The notes beneath the pieces are model-generated. The model was not told the origin of the DNA. It made no database searches and saw only the letters and a list, made by a program, of their open reading frames with translations. Shown one piece after another: positions 5,301 through 58,239 of a stretch of DNA of 58,239 nucleotides (positions are counted from its first letter, which is position 1; the number at the start of each line of letters is the position of its first letter). The position numbers were made by a program, and so were the translations under genes. This stretch comes from Candidatus Blackburnbacteria bacterium RIFCSPHIGHO2_01_FULL_43_15b (lineage in GTDB: Bacteria > Patescibacteriota > Microgenomatia > UBA8517 > UBA10165): the NCBI GenBank assembly GCA_001816385.1, contig MHBW01000031.1, positions 1 to 58,239 on the forward strand. Reading direction: 5' to 3'.

Positions 5301-7553
5301 TGGGCCATGCAAAACACGATGGCTGATGTATCTAGGGAGGGTTTTTCTGAGGGGGCAAAGCAGGAGATTGCCAAGCTTTTGAGTGAAGAATCGGTTGAAC
5401 AAAACCTGTTGCTGACAAAACTGTCAGCTTGGGCCAAAGAAGAGATGGATGAGATTATCCAAACTGCCACCTCTATGCCGATTTTGGGTGTTGACAAAGC
5501 AGCTGATGTTTTAGGTGAGCCTCCTATCCCTGATGATATTAGAACCAAAATTGAAGCGTTGCCTGCGGAGATGATTTCGGAAGAGAATAAGAAAAAACTG
5601 CTGGATGCAGATTCCCGGGTGGCAGTTAGGGCAGAATTGACTAATCTTTCAAATGTTGGAGGTTTGGGAAGAGACGATGTGGTATTTTTGAATGATGATT
5701 TTGATAAAGTTGACAGTGGAGCTCAAGTTGAGTTGGAAGAACTTTCCAAACTGGCAGAGATTGCCGACATTACCAATCAGAAGGATGATATTGATCAAAA
5801 GGTAGAAAAGAATGAGGATATTGTTACAAAACTGGGTGAATTTCAAAAAAACTTTGAGCCCGGTCAAGAAATTCCCGCGGAAATTCGTCCTTATGTGAGG
5901 CTAACCAGGATTGATGAAATAACTCAAACTATCCGTCCTGATGTTGTGAGATTGGAAGATTTCCAAAACCGCAAAGACGTACAGCTTGCTGTGGCAACAC
6001 TCCAGGAAGAATTCAGACCTACCAGTCAATCTGTTCAGCAGGTGCGGGATTTTAGAAGAAGGAATCCCGGTGTTTTCCTACCGCCTGATTTGGCTAGGAT
6101 TGAAGCTTTATCATATAATCTAGGTGTAAGGGATCAGGCTGGTCCATGTTATCTACCCACCCCGCCTTTCCCGGCCAATACTCCTTGTCCTGCCCCGGGC
6201 GCGTCCATACCAATTGCCTCTTATACTGGATATCTGACAATAGATGAGTTTCGTCCCGGATGGCCTGGCGGGCCATCGGGCGGATCAAACAGCAGTCCGT
6301 CTGTTGACAAAGAAGGAAAACCTTTAGTTTATGGTCAAGGACCACAGGCCCAAAGCGCCGGAGTTTGTCCTGACGGATATCATTGGATGTATGACAGCGG
6401 CGGCTGGTGTATGTCAAATAGCGGTAACTACAGTTCTTCTTACAACTATACGCCAACCGGAACCGGTTCGGGTTATACTCCTTACAGCCCTTATTACACT
6501 GCTCCGGGAGCTCCACCTGCCACTTACGGTTACCCAACAGGTGGGAATTATCCTTCGTCTCCTTACTCATATGGTGCGCCTAGTTATTATGGTCCGGCTC
6601 CCACTAATTACACCACTAATCCGCCATCAGGCACTGTACCCGGTTCAGGACCTGCGCCTGTCTCTCCGGGTCAGTGTCCATCAGGCTTTCATTGGATGAG
6701 TGACAGTGGTGGTTGGTGTATGTCAAATGGCAATACTTATGTACCCGGTGGTGGCGGCGGATACGGTGGCGGTAGCGGCGTTAACCCGCTCTACCCAGGC
6801 GGCTCAGGCAATTGCCCACCCGGACAATATTGGACAGGAGGTCCGTCAGGAGGCTCGTGTGTTACTTCCGATACGTGGGGTGGATATGGCGGCACATCAT
6901 GCGGCGTTGGTCCGCCATCATCCGGTTGTGGTTATAATTCATATTGGGATTCCGGCAGTTGTTCCTGCAGAAGTTCCAACACCCCATATTATGGGGGTGG
7001 AGGATCATCAGGTGGTCCAAGCGGTTGTTATCCTCCCCCAGGTGGCTGTGGATCTGGTTGGTGGGATAATGGATCATGTTCATGCAAACAGGCTTCATCA
7101 CAAGGCTGTTACAATGTATCGGCATCAAGTTGTGGCAGCGGATTTTATTGGGATGCCGGCCTTTGTACTTGCCGCTCCAACACCACATCCTCCGGTGGAG
7201 GGACCAGCAGTGGAGGATCTACCAGTAGCGGATCCTGTCCTTCCGGTTCTCATTGGATGAGCGATAATGGCGGTTACTGTATGTCTGATGCCGCTCGAGA
7301 CGGGTCAACATCAGGAGGCTCCACCACCACTGGTGGTTCTACCCCAAGTGGTTCGTGTCCTTCTGGTTATCACTGGATGGGCGATAATGGCGGCTGGTGG
7401 ATGTCTGACGGCGCCCAAACAAGCTCGACTCCCACCACTACCACCACTGAACCATCAACCAGCACTACTACTACAGCTCCCACCACTACCACCACTGAAC
7501 CATCAACCAGCACTACTACTACAGCTCCCACCACTACCACCACTTCTCCATGA
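2349..7553 (+). CDS. giant secreted/cell-surface repeat protein: three DUF5667-like modules, Cys-rich repeats and a Gly/Ser/Tyr/Thr-rich tail
   Basis: 1,734-aa uninterrupted ORF (TTG at 2349; first ATG at 2361) with an N-terminal hydrophobic signal/anchor. There are three roughly 430-aa paralogous modules: GNPLSPLEHFAENVQLAFTFNP..., GNTFYFLKRTAEGIQTITTFD... and GNPFYFVKQWGEGLQKTFAFTP.... The motif CPxGxHWMxDxGGWCMS recurs four times. Confidence 0.85.
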   Translation: MAAKMRDKYRLPQICQKGSVLLLLVFLFLALPARAIALTNVQSYYDWGPYYHSNQQVLGVTYPSTEKLPSITPPEGVSIPQSTGILPGNPLSPLEHFAENVQLAFTFNPVTKEELRLSIAQERLSEAKTLTDQEQFQHASEAAFLYQKTMATIVQNLETLASNNPDSASQLATAVENVTVSHATAIQSIAAANPPAASTVWAHIDNGANAALDAVSNLKGEPPIPNDLSTSIQALKEQGILTSEESEKIYGLPSRAEVRETLEKLTTSGRFPIAEMTKLDTQIASRYPEFHNQLTNNLQFVELRTYETLPPPDNETKKSLEEWQSRKDKDLPLPPEIRPYLYTSRSEELASSINFAPFSKDQQNEVAKFFPEAVLVNPTIPSETSSPSPTPTPATGPEPAPSPAEPVTPSPSLPPPSTAPYLTSYNGTLPGNTFYFLKRTAEGIQTITTFDKSEKARLAMRFAEERLREASVLAKNEARADDYQQTLEQYRDTMRSVVQAVKTLSGPEDQKQELAEIFESEASRHNIIFEKGLLPIPTENTQIFTDAVRATENLMDVSADTLKRAPLPLVLANRLQDMKAQGLLLPEEVDVLTQSESREEARALIRDFSKEGIFPPTDTKKLDEAQALVSPSDFNQLVEVRKVEELQNLRSIQTDLAQTPTLKNNANVLSQRVKNLTESIDISLIKPEDIAGREDLKAVYDKLAASSSARPINRGQFGNQPPSPTDVVLTACPVGATFKSGEGCVWADSGKKLNDYDQYKCSGSGQYYSFAAQKCVPYERGRGFGDDASPVCPAGYNWAWQSQSCQTSPGGVTPLPIPSPGPGDSESCPQESSYQAPNGCVWDNNGKPVSDSTDYNCQSNQYYSFSQFKCVPQPKPGEDPRDFVPSCKSPNTYWSWSDGKCTLPRPIEGGIKEINIPQPTFVPPGNPFYFVKQWGEGLQKTFAFTPQVREQVSLSQAKERLAEAAYALKKDDKAGVKAAISDYIWAMQNTMADVSREGFSEGAKQEIAKLLSEESVEQNLLLTKLSAWAKEEMDEIIQTATSMPILGVDKAADVLGEPPIPDDIRTKIEALPAEMISEENKKKLLDADSRVAVRAELTNLSNVGGLGRDDVVFLNDDFDKVDSGAQVELEELSKLAEIADITNQKDDIDQKVEKNEDIVTKLGEFQKNFEPGQEIPAEIRPYVRLTRIDEITQTIRPDVVRLEDFQNRKDVQLAVATLQEEFRPTSQSVQQVRDFRRRNPGVFLPPDLARIEALSYNLGVRDQAGPCYLPTPPFPANTPCPAPGASIPIASYTGYLTIDEFRPGWPGGPSGGSNSSPSVDKEGKPLVYGQGPQAQSAGVCPDGYHWMYDSGGWCMSNSGNYSSSYNYTPTGTGSGYTPYSPYYTAPGAPPATYGYPTGGNYPSSPYSYGAPSYYGPAPTNYTTNPPSGTVPGSGPAPVSPGQCPSGFHWMSDSGGWCMSNGNTYVPGGGGGYGGGSGVNPLYPGGSGNCPPGQYWTGGPSGGSCVTSDTWGGYGGTSCGVGPPSSGCGYNSYWDSGSCSCRSSNTPYYGGGGSSGGPSGCYPPPGGCGSGWWDNGSCSCKQASSQGCYNVSASSCGSGFYWDAGLCTCRSNTTSSGGGTSSGGSTSSGSCPSGSHWMSDNGGYCMSDAARDGSTSGGSTTTGGSTPSGSCPSGYHWMGDNGGWWMSDGAQTSSTPTTTTTEPSTSTTTTAPTTTTTEPSTSTTTTAPTTTTTSP
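7431..7544 (+). repeat. perfect 48-bp tandem repeat (2.4 copies) encoding the Thr-rich PTTTTTEPSTSTTTTA unit
   Basis: The unit cccaccactaccaccactgaaccatcaaccagcactactactacagct occurs at 7431-7478 and again at 7479-7526. A partial third copy runs to 7544. It lies in frame at the C-terminus of the giant ORF. Confidence 0.9.
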
Positions 7554-9452: not shown

Positions 9453-9476
9453 ACTACCACCCCTCGCGCCGTGGTA
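9449..9476 (+). repeat. 28-bp direct repeat, copy 1 (atgaactaccacccctcgcgccgtggta)
   Basis: Identical to 9752-9779. It contains the hairpin taccac-N10-gtggta. The preceding ccttcaa is also shared between the two copies. Confidence 0.9.
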
Positions 9477-9506
9477 GCCTATCATTTAGAGTATACTAAC
9501 AGCGAA

Positions 9507-9755
9507 ATGGCTAACAAAAAGAGTCATACAGACAGTGAAGCTTTTGACCAAGTGCTTCATGACATCAAAACTCCCTTAACAAATATAAAAACCTTTAGCT
9601 ATCTCCTAAACCGCCAACTGGAAACAGGTCAGGATAAAGAAGCTTGTGTAAATTATGTGGGCAAAATACAAACCAATCTAGATCGAGCCATTAGTCTTCT
9701 TGACAACCTTACCGCAACAGTCCGGCAATCTCTGAAAAACCCTTCAAGCACATGA
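9507..9755 (+). pseudogene. isolated HisKA (dimerisation/phospho-acceptor) fragment of a sensor histidine kinase
   Basis: The H-box HDIKTPLTNIKTFSYLL is present, but there is no sensor domain and no ATPase domain. The ORF ends at the TGA inside repeat copy 2. Confidence 0.5.
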
Positions 9756-9779
9756 ACTACCACCCCTCGCGCCGTGGTA
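9752..9779 (+). repeat. 28-bp direct repeat, copy 2
   Basis: Identical to 9449-9476 by manual alignment. Confidence 0.9.
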
Positions 9780-44265: not shown

Positions 44266-44565
44266 ATGAAAAGAAAAAAAGACGATCTTGATAGAACAAT
44301 AGAAAAAATTCTCAAGGAGGATCCTGCTTTTCAGTACGAGCTTGACCAAGCAGGGGCTGCTTGGGATATTGCTCTTCAGATTTATGATCTTCGCAAAAAA
44401 GCGGGTCTTACTCAAACGCAGTTGGCAAAATTGGTTGGAACTACTCAATCCAACATTGCTCGGATTGAAGCAGCGGACTATACAGGCTATACCCACAAAA
44501 CTTTAGAAAAAGTTGCAAGGGCACTCAATGCCAAGCTTGAAGTGAGACTGGTTCCTCTTCGTTAG
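44266..44565 (+). CDS. XRE-family helix-turn-helix protein (HigA-like antitoxin/regulator)
   Basis: ATG 44266 is preceded by AAGGAGG. The longer ORF from 44197 would have to be leaderless. The HTH is LRKKAGLTQTQLAKLVGTTQSNIARIE. Confidence 0.75.
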   Translation: MKRKKDDLDRTIEKILKEDPAFQYELDQAGAAWDIALQIYDLRKKAGLTQTQLAKLVGTTQSNIARIEAADYTGYTHKTLEKVARALNAKLEVRLVPLR

Positions 44566-51585: not shown

Positions 51586-51810
51586 TTGAGCAAACTTCCC
51601 AGGAATATTAAAGGTAAAGAATTGGTTAAGATCCTTGGGAGACTGGGTTTTAAAAAAGAAAGCGGGAAAGGAAGTCATATAAGAATGACTTGTCCAGACG
51701 GCCGGTGGACTCAAGTAGCAATTCACACAAAACCAATTCCACAAGGAACGCTCAAAGCAATTTTGAAACAATCGGGAGTCACAGTTGAAGATCTCCTCAA
51801 AAACATGTAA
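51586..51810 (+). CDS. hicA: HicA-family toxin
   Basis: 74 aa with a TTG start. KELVKILGRLGFKKESGKGSHIRM...IPQGTLKAILKQSGV is a typical HicA sequence. Confidence 0.8.
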   Translation: MSKLPRNIKGKELVKILGRLGFKKESGKGSHIRMTCPDGRWTQVAIHTKPIPQGTLKAILKQSGVTVEDLLKNM

Positions 51811-54449: not shown

Positions 54450-56204
54450 ATGCCCGTTCTCACTGCCAAGATTCTTCTAAACTCTACTCGGCGTGCATGG
54501 ACGCAAATTTACGAACAAAATAGTTTTGTGGCTTTAATCTCTTTAGAAGCAGGTGAAGAACAAGAGGCTGCGTCTGCTACGGAAAAAGGTCACGAAGCCC
54601 TTTCTTTACTGCAAGCAGAATGCGCATCCTCAGAAAACCTGGCCCAGCATTTACCCTCTATTGTTGAAAGACTGTATTCAACTTTCAGCGCAAACAATCC
54701 GGAAGTGGCTGCCTGTGTGGTTTTGGGAGACTACATATATTTTGCCAAAAAAGGATTGTCTGAAATTTGGGCTATCAGAGACCAGAAGCCATACCGATTA
54801 AGTTCTGATAATTTTTCAGGAAGATTGGATTTCGGGGATTTATTCTTGCTGGGTACGGCTGAATTTTTCAAGAGAGCCAGCGAGGGGAGCCTGGAAGAAA
54901 TACTTAAAGACAAAAGTACGGTTGATGAGGTTGGAGATGCGATAAGTCCTCTGATCCACAGAAGTGACGACCCCAAAGCCGGAGGTGTAATTATCAAGGC
55001 AAAAATTGTACCGGCTCCAGTTAAGGAGGTGCAGCCAGAATTTACAAGACCAAACGTTTTTAAAAGACTTCTGGTTAAACTAGCTTACAAATTGCCGGAG
55101 CGCGAATTCACACCCAATATGCCCGGAGCTTCAAGAAGAACTGCATTTTTTATCGGGGTAATGCTTTTGGTTTTACTAAGCGTCAGTATCTTTTTTGGGA
55201 TAAAACAGAAAGGAGTACTTGATTACAAAGCATCCTATCAGGATCGCTTAAGTCGCGCTCAAGTTCTTTATAACGATGCAGTGTCGCTGAAAGGTTCAAA
55301 CATTCTTGCGGCAAGAGATTCTTTTACCCAGGCTAAAGCAATTTTAACCTCACTAAAAGAAGAAGGGGTTACCGATCCGGAATTGGATCAGCTAAAGACC
55401 AGTCTTGATTCTCAGGAGTCGGATATTTTGGGACAGTCCCATATTCCTGCCAGCCCTTTTTCCGACTTAGCCATATTCAAGTCAGATATAAACGCCTCTG
55501 ACCTTTCATTTAGTAATGGAACAATGGCAGTATTGGATACAAAAGGCGAGCGTGTTGTGTTTGTAGGCAGTAAAAGCAAAGAAACAGCGGTTTCGGGTAA
55601 AGCTGCCGGACCTTTATCTGTTTCAACGGCTGACGGGAAAACATATGTTTTAGGCACAGATGGAATTTCAGAGGTCGATAAGTTGGGGGGCAAGGTTATT
55701 ATTCCCACAGACAGCCAGTGGACTTCTCCGGTTAAACTTGCTGCGTTTGGTTCAAATTTATATTTGCTAGAAAAAGGCGGCGTAATTTGGAAGTATCCCG
55801 GAATTACTTCAGGGTTTGGCAGCAAACAGGAATGGCTAAAAAGTGGATCTTCAGATTTAGTAGGAAATGCCAGGGCTTGGGCCATTGATGGTTCAGTCTA
55901 TGTTTTGGGCAATGGTGGAACGATTGCTAAGTACGTTAGGGAAGTAAAAGACAGTTTCCGAGTTTCTGAACTGTCCCGCGCTTTTGGAGACGCTACATCT
56001 ATTTACACCGATCCTTCTTTGGATTCTTTATATGTGTTGGATAAAGGGATTGGACGTGTTGTAGAGCTTGATAAAACCGGCAGTTACAAATTTGAATATG
56101 TAGTTGACGAGGCCAGGCAAGCCGGTGGAATGGTAGTTTCCCAGGCGGATAGAAAGATTTTTCTTCTTGTTAACAACAAAATTTTCTCAATTCCTTTAAA
56201 ATAA
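54450..56204 (+). CDS. membrane protein, function unknown (cytoplasmic N-domain, one TM helix, beta-rich ectodomain)
   Basis: 584 aa with a TM helix at FFIGVMLLVLLSVSIFFGI. The C-terminal half has repeated beta-strand blocks that look propeller-like. Confidence 0.55.
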   Translation: MPVLTAKILLNSTRRAWTQIYEQNSFVALISLEAGEEQEAASATEKGHEALSLLQAECASSENLAQHLPSIVERLYSTFSANNPEVAACVVLGDYIYFAKKGLSEIWAIRDQKPYRLSSDNFSGRLDFGDLFLLGTAEFFKRASEGSLEEILKDKSTVDEVGDAISPLIHRSDDPKAGGVIIKAKIVPAPVKEVQPEFTRPNVFKRLLVKLAYKLPEREFTPNMPGASRRTAFFIGVMLLVLLSVSIFFGIKQKGVLDYKASYQDRLSRAQVLYNDAVSLKGSNILAARDSFTQAKAILTSLKEEGVTDPELDQLKTSLDSQESDILGQSHIPASPFSDLAIFKSDINASDLSFSNGTMAVLDTKGERVVFVGSKSKETAVSGKAAGPLSVSTADGKTYVLGTDGISEVDKLGGKVIIPTDSQWTSPVKLAAFGSNLYLLEKGGVIWKYPGITSGFGSKQEWLKSGSSDLVGNARAWAIDGSVYVLGNGGTIAKYVREVKDSFRVSELSRAFGDATSIYTDPSLDSLYVLDKGIGRVVELDKTGSYKFEYVVDEARQAGGMVVSQADRKIFLLVNNKIFSIPLK

Positions 56205-56439
56205 AAAAGGGTTTTACCAGTTGTTGGCTGGCTGGGTGCCCTTAGACCCATGGGTGAGTTTACCGAACGCCGAGTGTTTTGTACTCAAGGCCTTGACGAG
56301 ATTTTTTGTGCCGGGCCCCTCCTCGACGTGAGCCAGGTAACTATCTGGTGTTTCGACAAGATAAACACTCTCGCCGCGACTGGCCTTTAGCTCTGAAAAG
56401 CCAAACCGACGAACGTTGAATGCTCGGGCGGGCAAAAAG

Positions 56440-56494
56440 GGAGGGGGTTGGGGGGAAGGAATTTTTGTCCGCCCTCGCTTTCCGCCGCCGAATT
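56440..56494. repeat. left arm of a perfect 55-bp inverted repeat
   Basis: ggagggggttggggggaaggaatttttgtccgccctcgctttccgccgccgaatt is the exact reverse complement of 58109-58163 (aligned base by base). Imperfect similarity extends outward to about 56422. Confidence 0.9.
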
Positions 56495-56514
56495 CAGTTA
56501 GTATATAATCACAA

Positions 56515-57768
56515 CTATACCAAACCAATCTCCGCTGGCAATGTGTTGAGCATAAATTCTTCTGGTTTCTCTACAAATATAATCCTTTTGCTTAAAGAGT
56601 TAGCAAATCCTATTTCTATAAGTGCAGAAGCGCCGACATATCCTTCAGGATCACAAACAATCAAAGCATCTGATTTTAATATAGAATCCAAATGATGCCG
56701 TTCCAATTCAAGTGGGGTTAGTCCTTCTTCGCCGGTAAAAACAACAAATTTTTCACCAGGATTTTTTGGTTCAGTGAACCTCGGACTGAGAACTTTAGAG
56801 CCTTCCGATTCAATTTTTTCTTTAATCTTTAGTATGTAATCAAGATGTTTTCTGAAACTTCCGCTGATAGTAACATACCTAAATTCTTGTCTTGCAACGC
56901 CATTGATAAGGTTAGAGTTAGATGGGATAACAGATTGGATAAGATATTTTTGAAAAACAGCTTGAGCGATTGCTGAACAACCTCTTGCACCATGCATCCA
57001 TTTTGGATTTTCCGACATCAATGACTCAAGTTCGCTCAATGTCAATTTTTCAAAAATATCATTATTGCGCTTTGAGAAATTATCCACTGATATAACCGAG
57101 GGGTGGTCATCGTCAGAAAATAATTTATTGGTTTCTAAAACATAGCCAGTTATTTGCATGTAATTCAATTCGCCGCCAGTATAAAAAGCATATCTGACCT
57201 TATTATCCAAACTTGGAAGTCGATTGCTTACATAGTCAATTATTTCATTCAGCGAGATTCCAGCTATTGGCTCGTTTATTTTTGAAAATTGAGTATTTAC
57301 CGTACCGACTCCAAGGTCTACATTTTTCATTTCTATTGCCTCGCGACCGTACATTACAACTAACTCCATAGAACCTCCACCGATATTAACTAGCAACACC
57401 GGCTCATTAAGCGGACATTTTCCAACCAAAGCCATTTCTAGGTAAAAGTTTTCTATGTCTTGATCTATGATATTAAAGTATAAGCCAGTTCGTCCGAAAA
57501 ATTCATCAATAAAAGTAACCTTCGTACTTTTGACAAGCTTTCTAAAAATACCAGTGGCGAAAATTTTGATTTTTGAATTTTTGTTTTTATCTTTTACAGA
57601 ATCAATAATCTCAAAAAGTTCTTTTTTTGCCACAGAAGAAATACCGCCCTCTGGATCAAAGCCATCCTTAAAAGGAATACTCTTCTGAAACAGAATTTCG
57701 ACATCTTGTTTGGTATTTTTGTATACTTTTATAGTTGACGACCCCACATCTACTAAAATCGTGTTCAT
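56515..57768 (-). CDS. Ppx/GppA-type (ASKHA) phosphatase domain fused to a C-terminal nucleoside 2-deoxyribosyltransferase-like (NDT/SLOG-type Rossmannoid) domain
   Basis: 417 aa. The ASKHA phosphate motifs are ILVDVGSSTIKVY and LLVNIGGGSMELVV. The C-terminal 115 aa, VTISGSF...SDALIVCDPEGYVGASALIEIGFANSLSKRIIFV, follows the NDT-like pattern. Confidence 0.55.
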   Translation of the reverse strand: MNTILVDVGSSTIKVYKNTKQDVEILFQKSIPFKDGFDPEGGISSVAKKELFEIIDSVKDKNKNSKIKIFATGIFRKLVKSTKVTFIDEFFGRTGLYFNIIDQDIENFYLEMALVGKCPLNEPVLLVNIGGGSMELVVMYGREAIEMKNVDLGVGTVNTQFSKINEPIAGISLNEIIDYVSNRLPSLDNKVRYAFYTGGELNYMQITGYVLETNKLFSDDDHPSVISVDNFSKRNNDIFEKLTLSELESLMSENPKWMHGARGCSAIAQAVFQKYLIQSVIPSNSNLINGVARQEFRYVTISGSFRKHLDYILKIKEKIESEGSKVLSPRFTEPKNPGEKFVVFTGEEGLTPLELERHHLDSILKSDALIVCDPEGYVGASALIEIGFANSLSKRIIFVEKPEEFMLNTLPAEIGLV

Positions 57769-57779
57769 AGTTTTGGAAA

Positions 57780-57986
57780 TTAATTTATTAAATTTTCTAT
57801 TGAAACTCGAAGTGCTTTAGCGATTTTTGCCATAGTTTGAACACTTGGCTTATTAACTGTGCCACTTTCAACCTTCATAAGCGTTGTGTATTTAATATCC
57901 GCTTTCTTCGCCAAATCGTCTTGCGTTAAGCCGAGTTTCGCCCGCAATTTCTTAATGTTTTCGCTGATTGTTTTTCCACTTGTCAT
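57780..57986 (-). CDS. XRE-family helix-turn-helix regulator
   Basis: 68 aa. IKKLRAKLGLTQDDLAKKADIKYTTLMKVESG is a Cro/CI-type HTH. Confidence 0.8.
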   Translation of the reverse strand: MTSGKTISENIKKLRAKLGLTQDDLAKKADIKYTTLMKVESGTVNKPSVQTMAKIAKALRVSIENLIN

Positions 57987-57997
57987 ATAAATAAAGT

Positions 57998-58050
57998 TTT
58001 GGTAGTATTTTAGTATATAAGGTTATTACCCTTATTGTTATACTACCAAA
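57998..58050. promoter_or_regulatory. putative operator: 11-bp inverted repeat upstream of the XRE gene
   Basis: tttggtagtat at 57998-58008 and atactaccaaa at 58040-58050 are perfect inverted repeats. They flank an AT-rich stretch containing TATATAA. Confidence 0.45.
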
Positions 58051-58108
58051 TAAAATGAAAATGATCAAACAAATTTCTTGGCGGCGTATTTCGCAAGGCG
58101 AAATACGA

Positions 58109-58163
58109 AATTCGGCGGCGGAAAGCGAGGGCGGACAAAAATTCCTTCCCCCCAACCCCCTCC
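58109..58163. repeat. right arm of the perfect 55-bp inverted repeat
   Basis: Exact reverse complement of 56440-56494. It is directly preceded by a 9-bp-stem hairpin, cgtatttcg-caagg-cgaaatacg, at 58085-58107. Confidence 0.9.
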
Positions 58164-58239
58164 TTCCGCCGCACCCGAGCGGAGCGGTCAGGAATTTTTC
58201 TCAAAATGGGTTCGCGCTATTTTCAGAATATCCCACAAT

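Follow-up and report, generated by a model that had tools for sequence, protein, structure and literature searches.

The window examined here, positions 1 to 58,239 of contig MHBW01000031.1 of Candidatus Blackburnbacteria bacterium RIFCSPHIGHO2_01_FULL_43_15b (58,239 nucleotides), carries close to its right-hand end a two-gene cassette bracketed by exact 55-bp inverted repeats, which we call the arms. At a probability of roughly 0.6, we favour the explanation that each arm is the conserved inner core of a much longer inverted repeat, of the kind that flanks the cassettes of a widespread cargo-carrying family, which is linked to a large serine recombinase (LSR) and found mainly in the Candidate Phyla Radiation (CPR). 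The perfect 55-mer would then follow from the habit of this family of keeping near-identical long repeats, of which the core alone has survived here. What carries this explanation is directly visible in the sequences compared, namely how the cassettes are built and that they recur, their association with an LSR gene and with the 3' ends of tRNA genes, the short core that the junctions share, a strain-level break at the repeat terminus and the decay of the window copy. The contigs and loci used for comparison are labelled with L-numbers (for example L007 and L089).

The arms lie at 56440-56494 and 58109-58163, are reverse-complementary at 55 of 55 positions and enclose 1,614 nt, exactly as the initial annotation had it. 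The weaker similarity that it described for about 18 bp further outwards was recovered in a gapped alignment with two gaps, which extends to 74 nt at 91.9% identity (56422-56494 against 58109-58180). The GC content is 61.8% in the arms, 42.3% in the window as a whole and 34.9% in the cassette interior, in agreement with the earlier estimate of about 35% for the enclosed segment. No third copy of the arm was found in the window at three or fewer mismatches, and a profile of the arm family likewise returned only the two known copies (56416-56494 with 76 bits and 58107-58181 with 57 bits); none of 100 shuffled controls gave an arm match. Both arms are present without mismatches in seven contigs that originate from seven samples and several assemblers.

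The initial annotation had advised searching for further copies of the repeat, and these are numerous. A 24-nt arm core was searched for as an exact match in species-representative genomes, and the resulting counts are lower bounds. The core occurs in more than 119 such genomes, nearly all of them CPR/Patescibacteria and belonging to many candidate phyla. It gave zero matches in 2.9 million viral contigs, and blastn of the canonical site region against phage and plasmid collections gave no match; a phage or plasmid origin of the arms was rejected on these grounds. About 15 of the first 80 arm-bearing contigs, some of them longer than 100 kb, come from metagenome-assembled genomes labelled as lying outside the CPR (Gammaproteobacteria, Bdellovibrionales, Verrucomicrobiota, Actinomycetota and Thermodesulfobacteriota; the contigs include L020, L021, L029, L057, L064, L065, L068, L086, L090, L093 and L095). 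These contigs represent either spread across phyla or CPR contigs that have been mis-binned or mislabelled.

A profile search of the arm-bearing loci located at least 39 inverted pairs among the loci listed. With boundaries anchored by BLAST, the repeats of a pair are usually 150-210 nt long (up to 484 nt) and 94-100% identical, and the segments that they enclose measure 1,339-5,304 nt, with a median of 2,280 nt. An XRE-family regulator gene lies inside 35 of the 39 pairs, and in 33 of the 39 it is the first gene, 113-198 nt from the arm and reading inwards. A hairpin that we term hairpin B accompanies the XRE-side arm in all 19 pairs that could be typed. The cargo behind the regulator is diverse, comprising methyltransferase-endonuclease sets, transporters, synthetase-like and radical-SAM proteins, an ArsR operon and many genes of unknown function; several cargoes are restriction-modification (RM) systems led by an XRE protein that resembles a C protein (L055, L057 and L152). 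The XRE type of the window, at 89-97% identity, heads cassettes with at least eight different cargoes in other phyla, and identical cargo is found behind two different XRE types in L125 and L133. Tandem cassettes are occasional (L016, L094 and L152). The proposal that the repeats are the termini of a mobile cassette is thus borne out by the bracketing of XRE-plus-cargo segments in at least 39 loci of other genomes, together with the divergence of strains at the end of the right repeat (see below) and the AT-richness of the cassette relative to its host. For the perfect repeats, which the initial annotation linked to recent duplication or active maintenance, the general habit of near-identical repeats in the family is a better explanation than a local duplication of recent date.

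From the inside outwards, the consensus of a family repeat begins with GGCGGCG and a hairpin, which is of type B on the XRE side and of type A on the cargo side; next comes CGAAATTCGGCGGCGGCGG, in some copies followed by a 17-nt insert, and then AAAGCGAGGGCGGGCAAAAA-TTCCTTCCCCCCAACCCCCTTCC-TTTTTGCCCGCCCGAGCG. The outermost part is 60-130 nt long, occurs in several 'outer' types and ends in a terminus of the form ..AAAAATGTTCGAAC..CAAAAAACACCGCC(A), which resembles the 3' end of a tRNA (..GTTCGAAC..CACCGCCA). From phylum to phylum the arm sequence hardly changes, whereas several types of outer part exist. The canonical arm is itself a hairpin with a 13-bp stem and a C-rich loop (DNA fold z = -2.95). 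Covariation is seen in hairpin A, where one pair is GC, AU or CG in 22, 16 and 2 sequences and another is UA or CG in 20 and 16. About half of the copies have the optional insert (AAAAAAATTGGAATCGG or AAAAATCGGAATCGG), which interrupts the GGCGG run of the arm, and additional GC-rich hairpins are inserted in the loops of L030, L032, L046, L117 and L136. In the closed 1.06-Mb genome of L152, a 294-nt inverted repeat (9466-9757 and 6593-6886) has a divergent arm, in which the G/C-rich loop is opposite to that of the family consensus, in a flip-flop-like manner; a unit next to it has no far-side repeat. A search of the window against Rfam gave no family at the gathering score and only chance-level matches on the arms; on one intact locus, the tRNA was the sole match at the gathering score, with a few sub-threshold matches near the tRNA and none on the arms. 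The arms were accordingly rejected as a known structured RNA.

The recurrent neighbour of these cassettes is an LSR with Resolvase, Recombinase and Zn-ribbon domains. In the 12 LSR-bearing loci inspected (L027, L036, L043, L057, L058, L070, L084, L089, L093, L116, L121 and L152, the last a closed genome) the LSR gene is the immediate outer neighbour of the XRE-side repeat and is oriented divergently from the XRE gene, which is the LSR-proximal cassette gene in all 12. A second inverted repeat, T, of 90-134 nt and 93-100% identity, brackets the LSR gene, and its outer copy abuts the 3' end of a tRNA gene, mostly tRNA-Ser, with tRNA-Gly and tRNA-Leu also represented. The intact order is therefore tRNA 3' end, T, LSR gene, inverted T, inverted cassette repeat (about 160 bp), hairpin B, XRE gene, cargo, hairpin A, cassette repeat and host DNA. 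In L089 the junction sequences are (slashes mark the junctions): ..CTCTCCG/CCA/AGTTTTACATTCAGCG.. on the tRNA side, ..AAAAAACACCG/CCA/AGTTTTACATTCAGCG.. internally and ..AAAAAACACCG/AATAATATC.. on the far side, where host DNA follows. The tRNA-T, repeat-T and repeat-host sites thus share only CCG(CCA), a pattern that is repeated in other loci. The middle site of L089 is complete, inverted and roughly dyad-symmetric, and the outer sites look like halves of it joined to the tRNA or to host DNA. This arrangement would result if a circle with one site of about 290 nt, present twice in inverted orientation, had integrated; two adjacent elements, each with terminal inverted repeats, would produce it equally well.

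The LSR family, counted at E ≤ 1e-30, comprises at least 7,970 clusters. Many of its members reside on contigs of about 2 kb, as expected for a gene trapped between repeats, and a homologue from Elusimicrobiota also abuts a tRNA-Ser gene. The best NCBIfam matches of the LSR are CcrB, XisF and CcrA; the scores are far below every family cut-off (96 against 900 bits for CcrB), and the LSR thus falls outside the named NCBIfam families. In other decayed copies (L063, L102 and L138) the order is tRNA, a short T, cargo, hairpin A and arm; these recombinase-less remnants (L063 2536-2700, L102 4352-4400 and L138 5690-5990) consist of a tRNA 3' end and 20-190 nt of T joined to a truncated or decayed XRE gene or cargo, and the breaks in L063 and L102 come right after the first 20 or so nucleotides of T (AGTTTTACATTCAGCGAAAT). 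The LSR gene of L121 (4903-6459) has an in-frame TAA, which is independent of the deletion in the window population described below. The inactivation of LSR genes on separate occasions in these two elements suggests that immobilisation after insertion may be frequent.

The same module is found at the window locus once the sequence is followed past its end. The right arm is followed by 76 nt of window sequence, and longer contigs from the same population extend beyond the window end. Past the right arm these contigs agree for about 70-75 nt and then split, after 58230 or 58238, into three contexts; the point at which the strain variants part is thus precisely where the right repeat ends on its outer side. 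Most contigs contain an LSR gene, the start of which is 215 nt from the right arm and 139 nt beyond the end of the window. The observation in the initial annotation that no recombinase lies within the window is therefore literally true and at the same time misleading, and its advice to inspect the sequence beyond 58239 was rewarded. This LSR gene is a pseudogene, which has lost about 55 codons, including those for the conserved ..AWHPDRLARNS.. with the DRLARN motif, and carries a frameshift (in L002, 156-885, a deletion of about 160 nt plus the frameshift in the window population). The term 'non-autonomous' used earlier for the cassette fits the window copy because the adjacent recombinase gene is a pseudogene. 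In the second context (L001) a DUF488 gene follows and there is no recombinase. In the third (L016, 1-2500) a second cassette stands directly beside the right repeat of the window, with an XRE gene that is 86% identical in DNA, a 44-residue open reading frame (ORF) and a 687-residue protein lacking a Pfam domain; the repeat at its end is a degenerate arm copy that breaks off halfway through the arm hairpin. A frame at the window end beginning MGSRYFQN had raised the idea of an IS200/RAYT transposase, which was dropped because the longer contigs show a non-coding repeat terminus followed by the LSR gene. A metagenome scan with the window-specific arm variant returned one contig, already in the locus set, and no further junctions.

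The two ends of the window cassette have fared differently. The right repeat (58109-58238) keeps its arm, the core of the XRE-side, recombinase-proximal repeat, and a recognisable outer segment (58164-58238, plus strand) that runs to a terminus (...GGGTTCGCGCTATTTTCAGAATATCCCACAA) and resembles the outer segments of the family (..AAAAATGTTCGAAC..CACCGCCA). Just inside it, between the arm and the XRE promoter, lies the family-conserved hairpin B (CGTATTTCGC-AAG-GCGAAATACG, 58085-58107). The hairpin reported earlier at this position is thus real, with a stem of 10 bp rather than 9. Hairpin A, its counterpart on the cargo side, is gone. The left arm is the core of the far-side, cargo-side repeat, and from it a stretch that matches the consensus (CTCCCTTTTTGCCCGCCCGAGC, 56416-56439, minus strand) extends outwards and contributes the 3' strand of the hairpin that a canonical arm forms. 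Beyond it, 136 nt of GC-rich DNA of uncertain origin (56280-56415) are without relatives among the loci compared; tentatively, judging by the sequence, they may be a diverged outer repeat part that ends near 56347 (..GTCGAAACACC). No relationship exists between the left and right outer parts, so that the ends of the window cassette are of different types and only the arm core stays identical between them. This is the pattern that would be expected if recombination in the arms had joined the ends of two different family members, and we take the structure to have been built either by recombination within the arms or by the replacement of one end. With its recombinase gene inactivated, the window copy is immobilised and eroded. 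For the genome, it stands for an insertion that was acquired by horizontal transfer and has since lost its mobility, at a hotspot that varies between strains.

The left flank was earlier taken for a start-less gene fragment, and this was not upheld. It gave no Pfam or PADLOC hit and had no tblastx relatives in 136 loci; 56416-56439 belongs to the repeat consensus, and an open frame runs through the arm in every family member because the arm lacks stop codons. Positions 56205-56279 (plus strand) are host intergenic DNA 3' of a gene for a 584-residue protein, are intergenic in a relative too and match the region upstream of smpB in that related genome (77% identity to L151 over 133 columns). In relatives from Candidatus Blackburnbacteria (L148-L151), smpB and ssrA follow the gene for the 584- or 592-residue protein (window 54450-56279). 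The tmRNA gene ssrA is a classical target for the integration of islands. Neither smpB nor ssrA was found anywhere in the 58-kb window, and in the window strain their position is taken by the cassette and further foreign-looking genes. The smpB-ssrA region of the relatives is rearranged with respect to the window and does not constitute a clean empty site. The left flank itself was rejected as a fragment of smpB or of the tmRNA gene, as it is similar to neither.

Both cassette genes are on the minus strand, as annotated previously. The XRE-family helix-turn-helix regulator, the conserved first gene of the cassette, has 68 residues (57780-57986; PF01381, E = 4e-15) and matches a PADLOC control-protein model (4.6e-10) and an RstR-like NCBIfam model (1.4e-13); among the PADLOC defence-system models, the XRE gene was matched generically and the cargo was not. 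Its upstream region (57987-58084, minus strand) contains a promoter-like site at 58041-58012, flanked by a 10-bp inverted repeat, TTGGTAGTAT (57999-58008) and ATACTACCAA (58040-58049), which is a putative autoregulatory operator. The cargo gene (56515-57768) encodes a 417-residue protein whose AlphaFold model has a mean confidence (pLDDT) of 87.6. Its N-terminal 300 residues have the Ppx/GppA fold (PF02541; Foldseek match to 1t6d, E = 8e-19). The nucleoside 2-deoxyribosyltransferase (NDT)-like C-terminal domain of the proposed fusion stands at the family level only, PF05014 being detected in 20 of 24 close homologues (best E = 1.3e-5) and not in the window protein itself. Homologues of the Ppx-NDT protein are ordinary, arm-free chromosomal genes in many CPR and DPANN genomes, and one (L138) lies within another decayed cassette beside a tRNA gene. 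The gene was rejected as a hallmark of the element, since most homologues are chromosomal and without arms. Elsewhere in the window, a second XRE-like coding region (44368-44541) is 33% identical to the cassette XRE and has arm-free surroundings. A HicA-toxin-like ORF of 41 residues lies at about 51685-51810; in JGI C687J35174, from the same population, it has its full 74 residues, which shows the gene of the window strain to be truncated.

In the mechanism that we propose, the LSR would recombine at the repeat termini and thereby integrate or excise the unit beside tRNA genes. The long repeats would be two inverted copies of a single site region of about 290 bp, and the arms with hairpins A and B would serve as structural boundary modules around a self-regulated XRE-cargo operon or as recombination-prone homology. 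The XRE protein would act as a C-protein-like or repressor-like controller of the cargo, and perhaps also of the divergent LSR promoter. Several observations weigh against this explanation. Canonical serine-integrase chemistry does not on its own generate long inverted repeats, and the presumed crossover points are some 100 nt further out than the arms. The arm itself may be a recombination substrate, because several members (L016, L019, L030, L109, L134 and the window) are truncated or chimeric within it. Some LSR-XRE units have divergent arms or lack the far-side repeat (L152), and no tRNA gene adjoins the window copy. The contigs, which were the material searched, yielded neither an excision product nor a circular junction nor an empty site for the window cassette; the empty-site alleles that the initial annotation recommended seeking did not turn up, as all 11 contigs with the 584-residue neighbour gene carry the cassette or stop inside it.

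A more far-reaching version of the LSR explanation, which we regard as possible and would not rely on, holds that the family is an undescribed serine-recombinase gene-cassette platform, a CPR counterpart of integrons and tycheposons, in which the LSR acts on twin inverted sites of about 290 bp and the system takes up, transports and exchanges XRE-controlled cargo between CPR phyla. The outer end of the site would mimic a tRNA 3' end and its inner end would be the almost invariant GC-rich hairpin. Such a platform would possibly have spread beyond the CPR, given the Elusimicrobiota homologue and the contigs binned as Gammaproteobacteria and Bdellovibrionales, and the window 55-mer would be a fossil of it.

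Explanations that do without LSR-mediated integration were weighed against the same data. The initial annotation had also offered an invertible segment, in which the 1.6-kb cassette is flipped as a phase-variation switch by a serine recombinase or by homologous recombination between the arms. In its favour, the repeats do stand in inverted orientation, and immediately beyond one of them comes a serine recombinase gene, as in Gin/G or Cin/C; many contigs of the family also end in both repeats. The 1.5-kb contig L007 even connects the Ppx end, by way of an arm, with the right-flank sequence, just as an inversion would, although only 38 nt lie beyond the arm; L007 may be an inversion product or a symmetric parent form, and an intact copy with symmetric repeats accounts for it equally well. 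The contig breaks are expected in any case because the repeats are longer than the assembly k-mer. Against inversion, the seven contigs spanning both arms all have the orientation of the window, and the reciprocal junction (left flank, arm, XRE side) was not observed among the contigs. The sides occupied by hairpin B and by the XRE gene are likewise fixed in the 19 typed pairs and the 12 LSR-bearing loci inspected, respectively, one closed genome included among the latter. Both genes lie wholly inside the repeats with their own promoter-like site and regulator, so that orientation would not switch their expression, and the local LSR is a pseudogene. We consider inversion improbable.

The arms, together with the hairpins and the XRE gene, could instead be chiefly portable homology, through which naturally competent cells of the CPR exchange cargo in ordinary homologous recombination; the recombinase would then be a mere neighbour. 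The pairing of one XRE type with at least eight unrelated cargoes and of one cargo with two XRE types fits such exchange, as do the near-invariance of the arms beside several types of outer part, the chimeric window ends with identity limited to the arm, the breakpoints inside the arms of L016, L019, L030 and L134, and the type IV pilin genes nearby. It leaves unexplained the inverted arrangement, the tRNA-like termini at tRNA genes and the adjacent LSR gene with repeats of its own. As a replacement for the LSR explanation it seems to us about as doubtful as inversion; exchange between homology arms may rather operate alongside site-specific recombination. A transposon with terminal inverted repeats, similar to a miniature inverted-repeat element with passenger genes and mobilised by a DDE-type or other transposase encoded elsewhere, would account for long terminal repeats around passenger genes and for many copies across genomes. 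Target-site duplications are, however, absent from the canonical junctions (L089: TGATATTATT/.../CCAAGTTTTA), the recurrent neighbour is the LSR and no transposase homologue recurs nearby, each window or locus has one pair rather than dispersed copies, and the insertion points are tRNA 3' ends. This origin is very unlikely. An assembly artefact, either a chimeric join or a collapsed palindrome, might be suspected from the end of the window so soon after the right arm and from the many related contigs that break near repeats. It is excluded for practical purposes by the seven contigs from independent samples with identical arms and interior (MEGAHIT, IDBA-type and JGI assemblies were compared), by the length of the 55-bp repeat, which is shorter than the final k-mer of 141, and by the presence of the same architecture in the closed 1.06-Mb genome.

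A large share of bacterial diversity belongs to the CPR/Patescibacteria. To our knowledge, few mobile elements have been recognised in them, and the movement of their accessory genes is poorly understood. The LSR-linked family represents a recurrent regulator-plus-cargo vehicle, associated with one recombinase family in more than 100 species-level genomes and carrying RM, transporter and metabolic cargo. Since the repeats exceed typical assembly k-mers, cassettes and LSR genes drop out as orphan contigs of 2-4 kb, and part of the accessory-gene content of the CPR is therefore systematically lost from genome bins. LSRs with defined tRNA-Ser targets, in a family of more than 7,900 sequence clusters, are also candidate tools for site-specific integration.

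Among the closest known systems are the LSR elements (SCCmec with CcrAB or CcrC, Tn4451 with TnpX, Tn5397 with TndX, the fdxN element with XisF and the serine-integrase prophages). They share with the CPR family the Resolvase, Recombinase and Zn-ribbon domains, a compact build with variable cargo, a very short junction core and a recombinase gene at one end. The CPR family differs from them in targeting tRNA 3' ends, in bracketing both the recombinase gene and the cargo with near-identical inverted repeats of 90-290 bp, in having an intact copy of the site between the recombinase and cargo units, and in a backbone that includes the GC-rich hairpin arm and the XRE lead gene. Targeting of tRNA 3' ends is the classical habit of tyrosine integrases. 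The serine invertases (Gin/G of Mu, Cin/C of P1, Hin/H of Salmonella and Min of p15B) have about 190 residues, use sites of 26-34 bp and a Fis enhancer, and swap promoters or the 3' ends of genes by inversion. In them too, a recombinase gene adjoins or lies within a segment that has inverted repeats at its ends, and the CPR LSR gene is bracketed as hin is; the CPR enzyme is, however, 500-580 residues long, its repeats are 5-10 times longer, and the orientation of the cassette, a self-contained operon, is fixed across genomes. Integron cassettes resemble those described here in having 1-4 genes, variable cargo, hairpin boundaries with a conserved structure, occasional tandems and a recombinase gene at one end that is divergent from the cassettes. 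In the CPR family the enzyme is a serine recombinase and not a tyrosine integrase, each end has one inverted repeat instead of a single attC, and the cassettes have their own regulator and promoter. The arms were rejected as attC sites, since inspection revealed no R'/R'' boxes (GTTRRRY/RYYYAAC) in them.

Two further systems are similar in habit. The tycheposons of Prochlorococcus are cargo elements at specific tRNA genes, including tRNA-Ser, in streamlined genomes that are devoid of classical mobile elements, and have tyrosine recombinases in 474 of 501 cases, direct partial-tRNA repeats and a replication module (10.1101/2020.12.28.424599). Their remnants pile up beside tRNA genes, and L063, L102, L138 and the window look similar; GC-rich inverted arms or an XRE lead gene are not described for them. 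Transposase-free RM units flanked by inverted repeats of 26-65 bp, with 8-bp target duplications and no common repeat sequence, have also been reported (Furuta, Abe, Kobayashi 2010, PMC2853133). They are comparable to L055, L057 and L152 in their compact RM cargo; in the CPR family, unlike these units, the repeats form one conserved family linked to an LSR and a tRNA, and no target duplication was seen. In the literature searched, we found no published description of an architecture that joins an LSR, a tRNA, inverted repeats and an XRE gene, and none of the systems compared unites an LSR and a tRNA target with long inverted repeats in twin copies, a conserved hairpin arm rich in GC and an XRE gene in the lead position. 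Taking these likenesses and differences together, we rate the CPR family as serine-recombinase integrative elements in kind and the window feature as a decayed member of that family.

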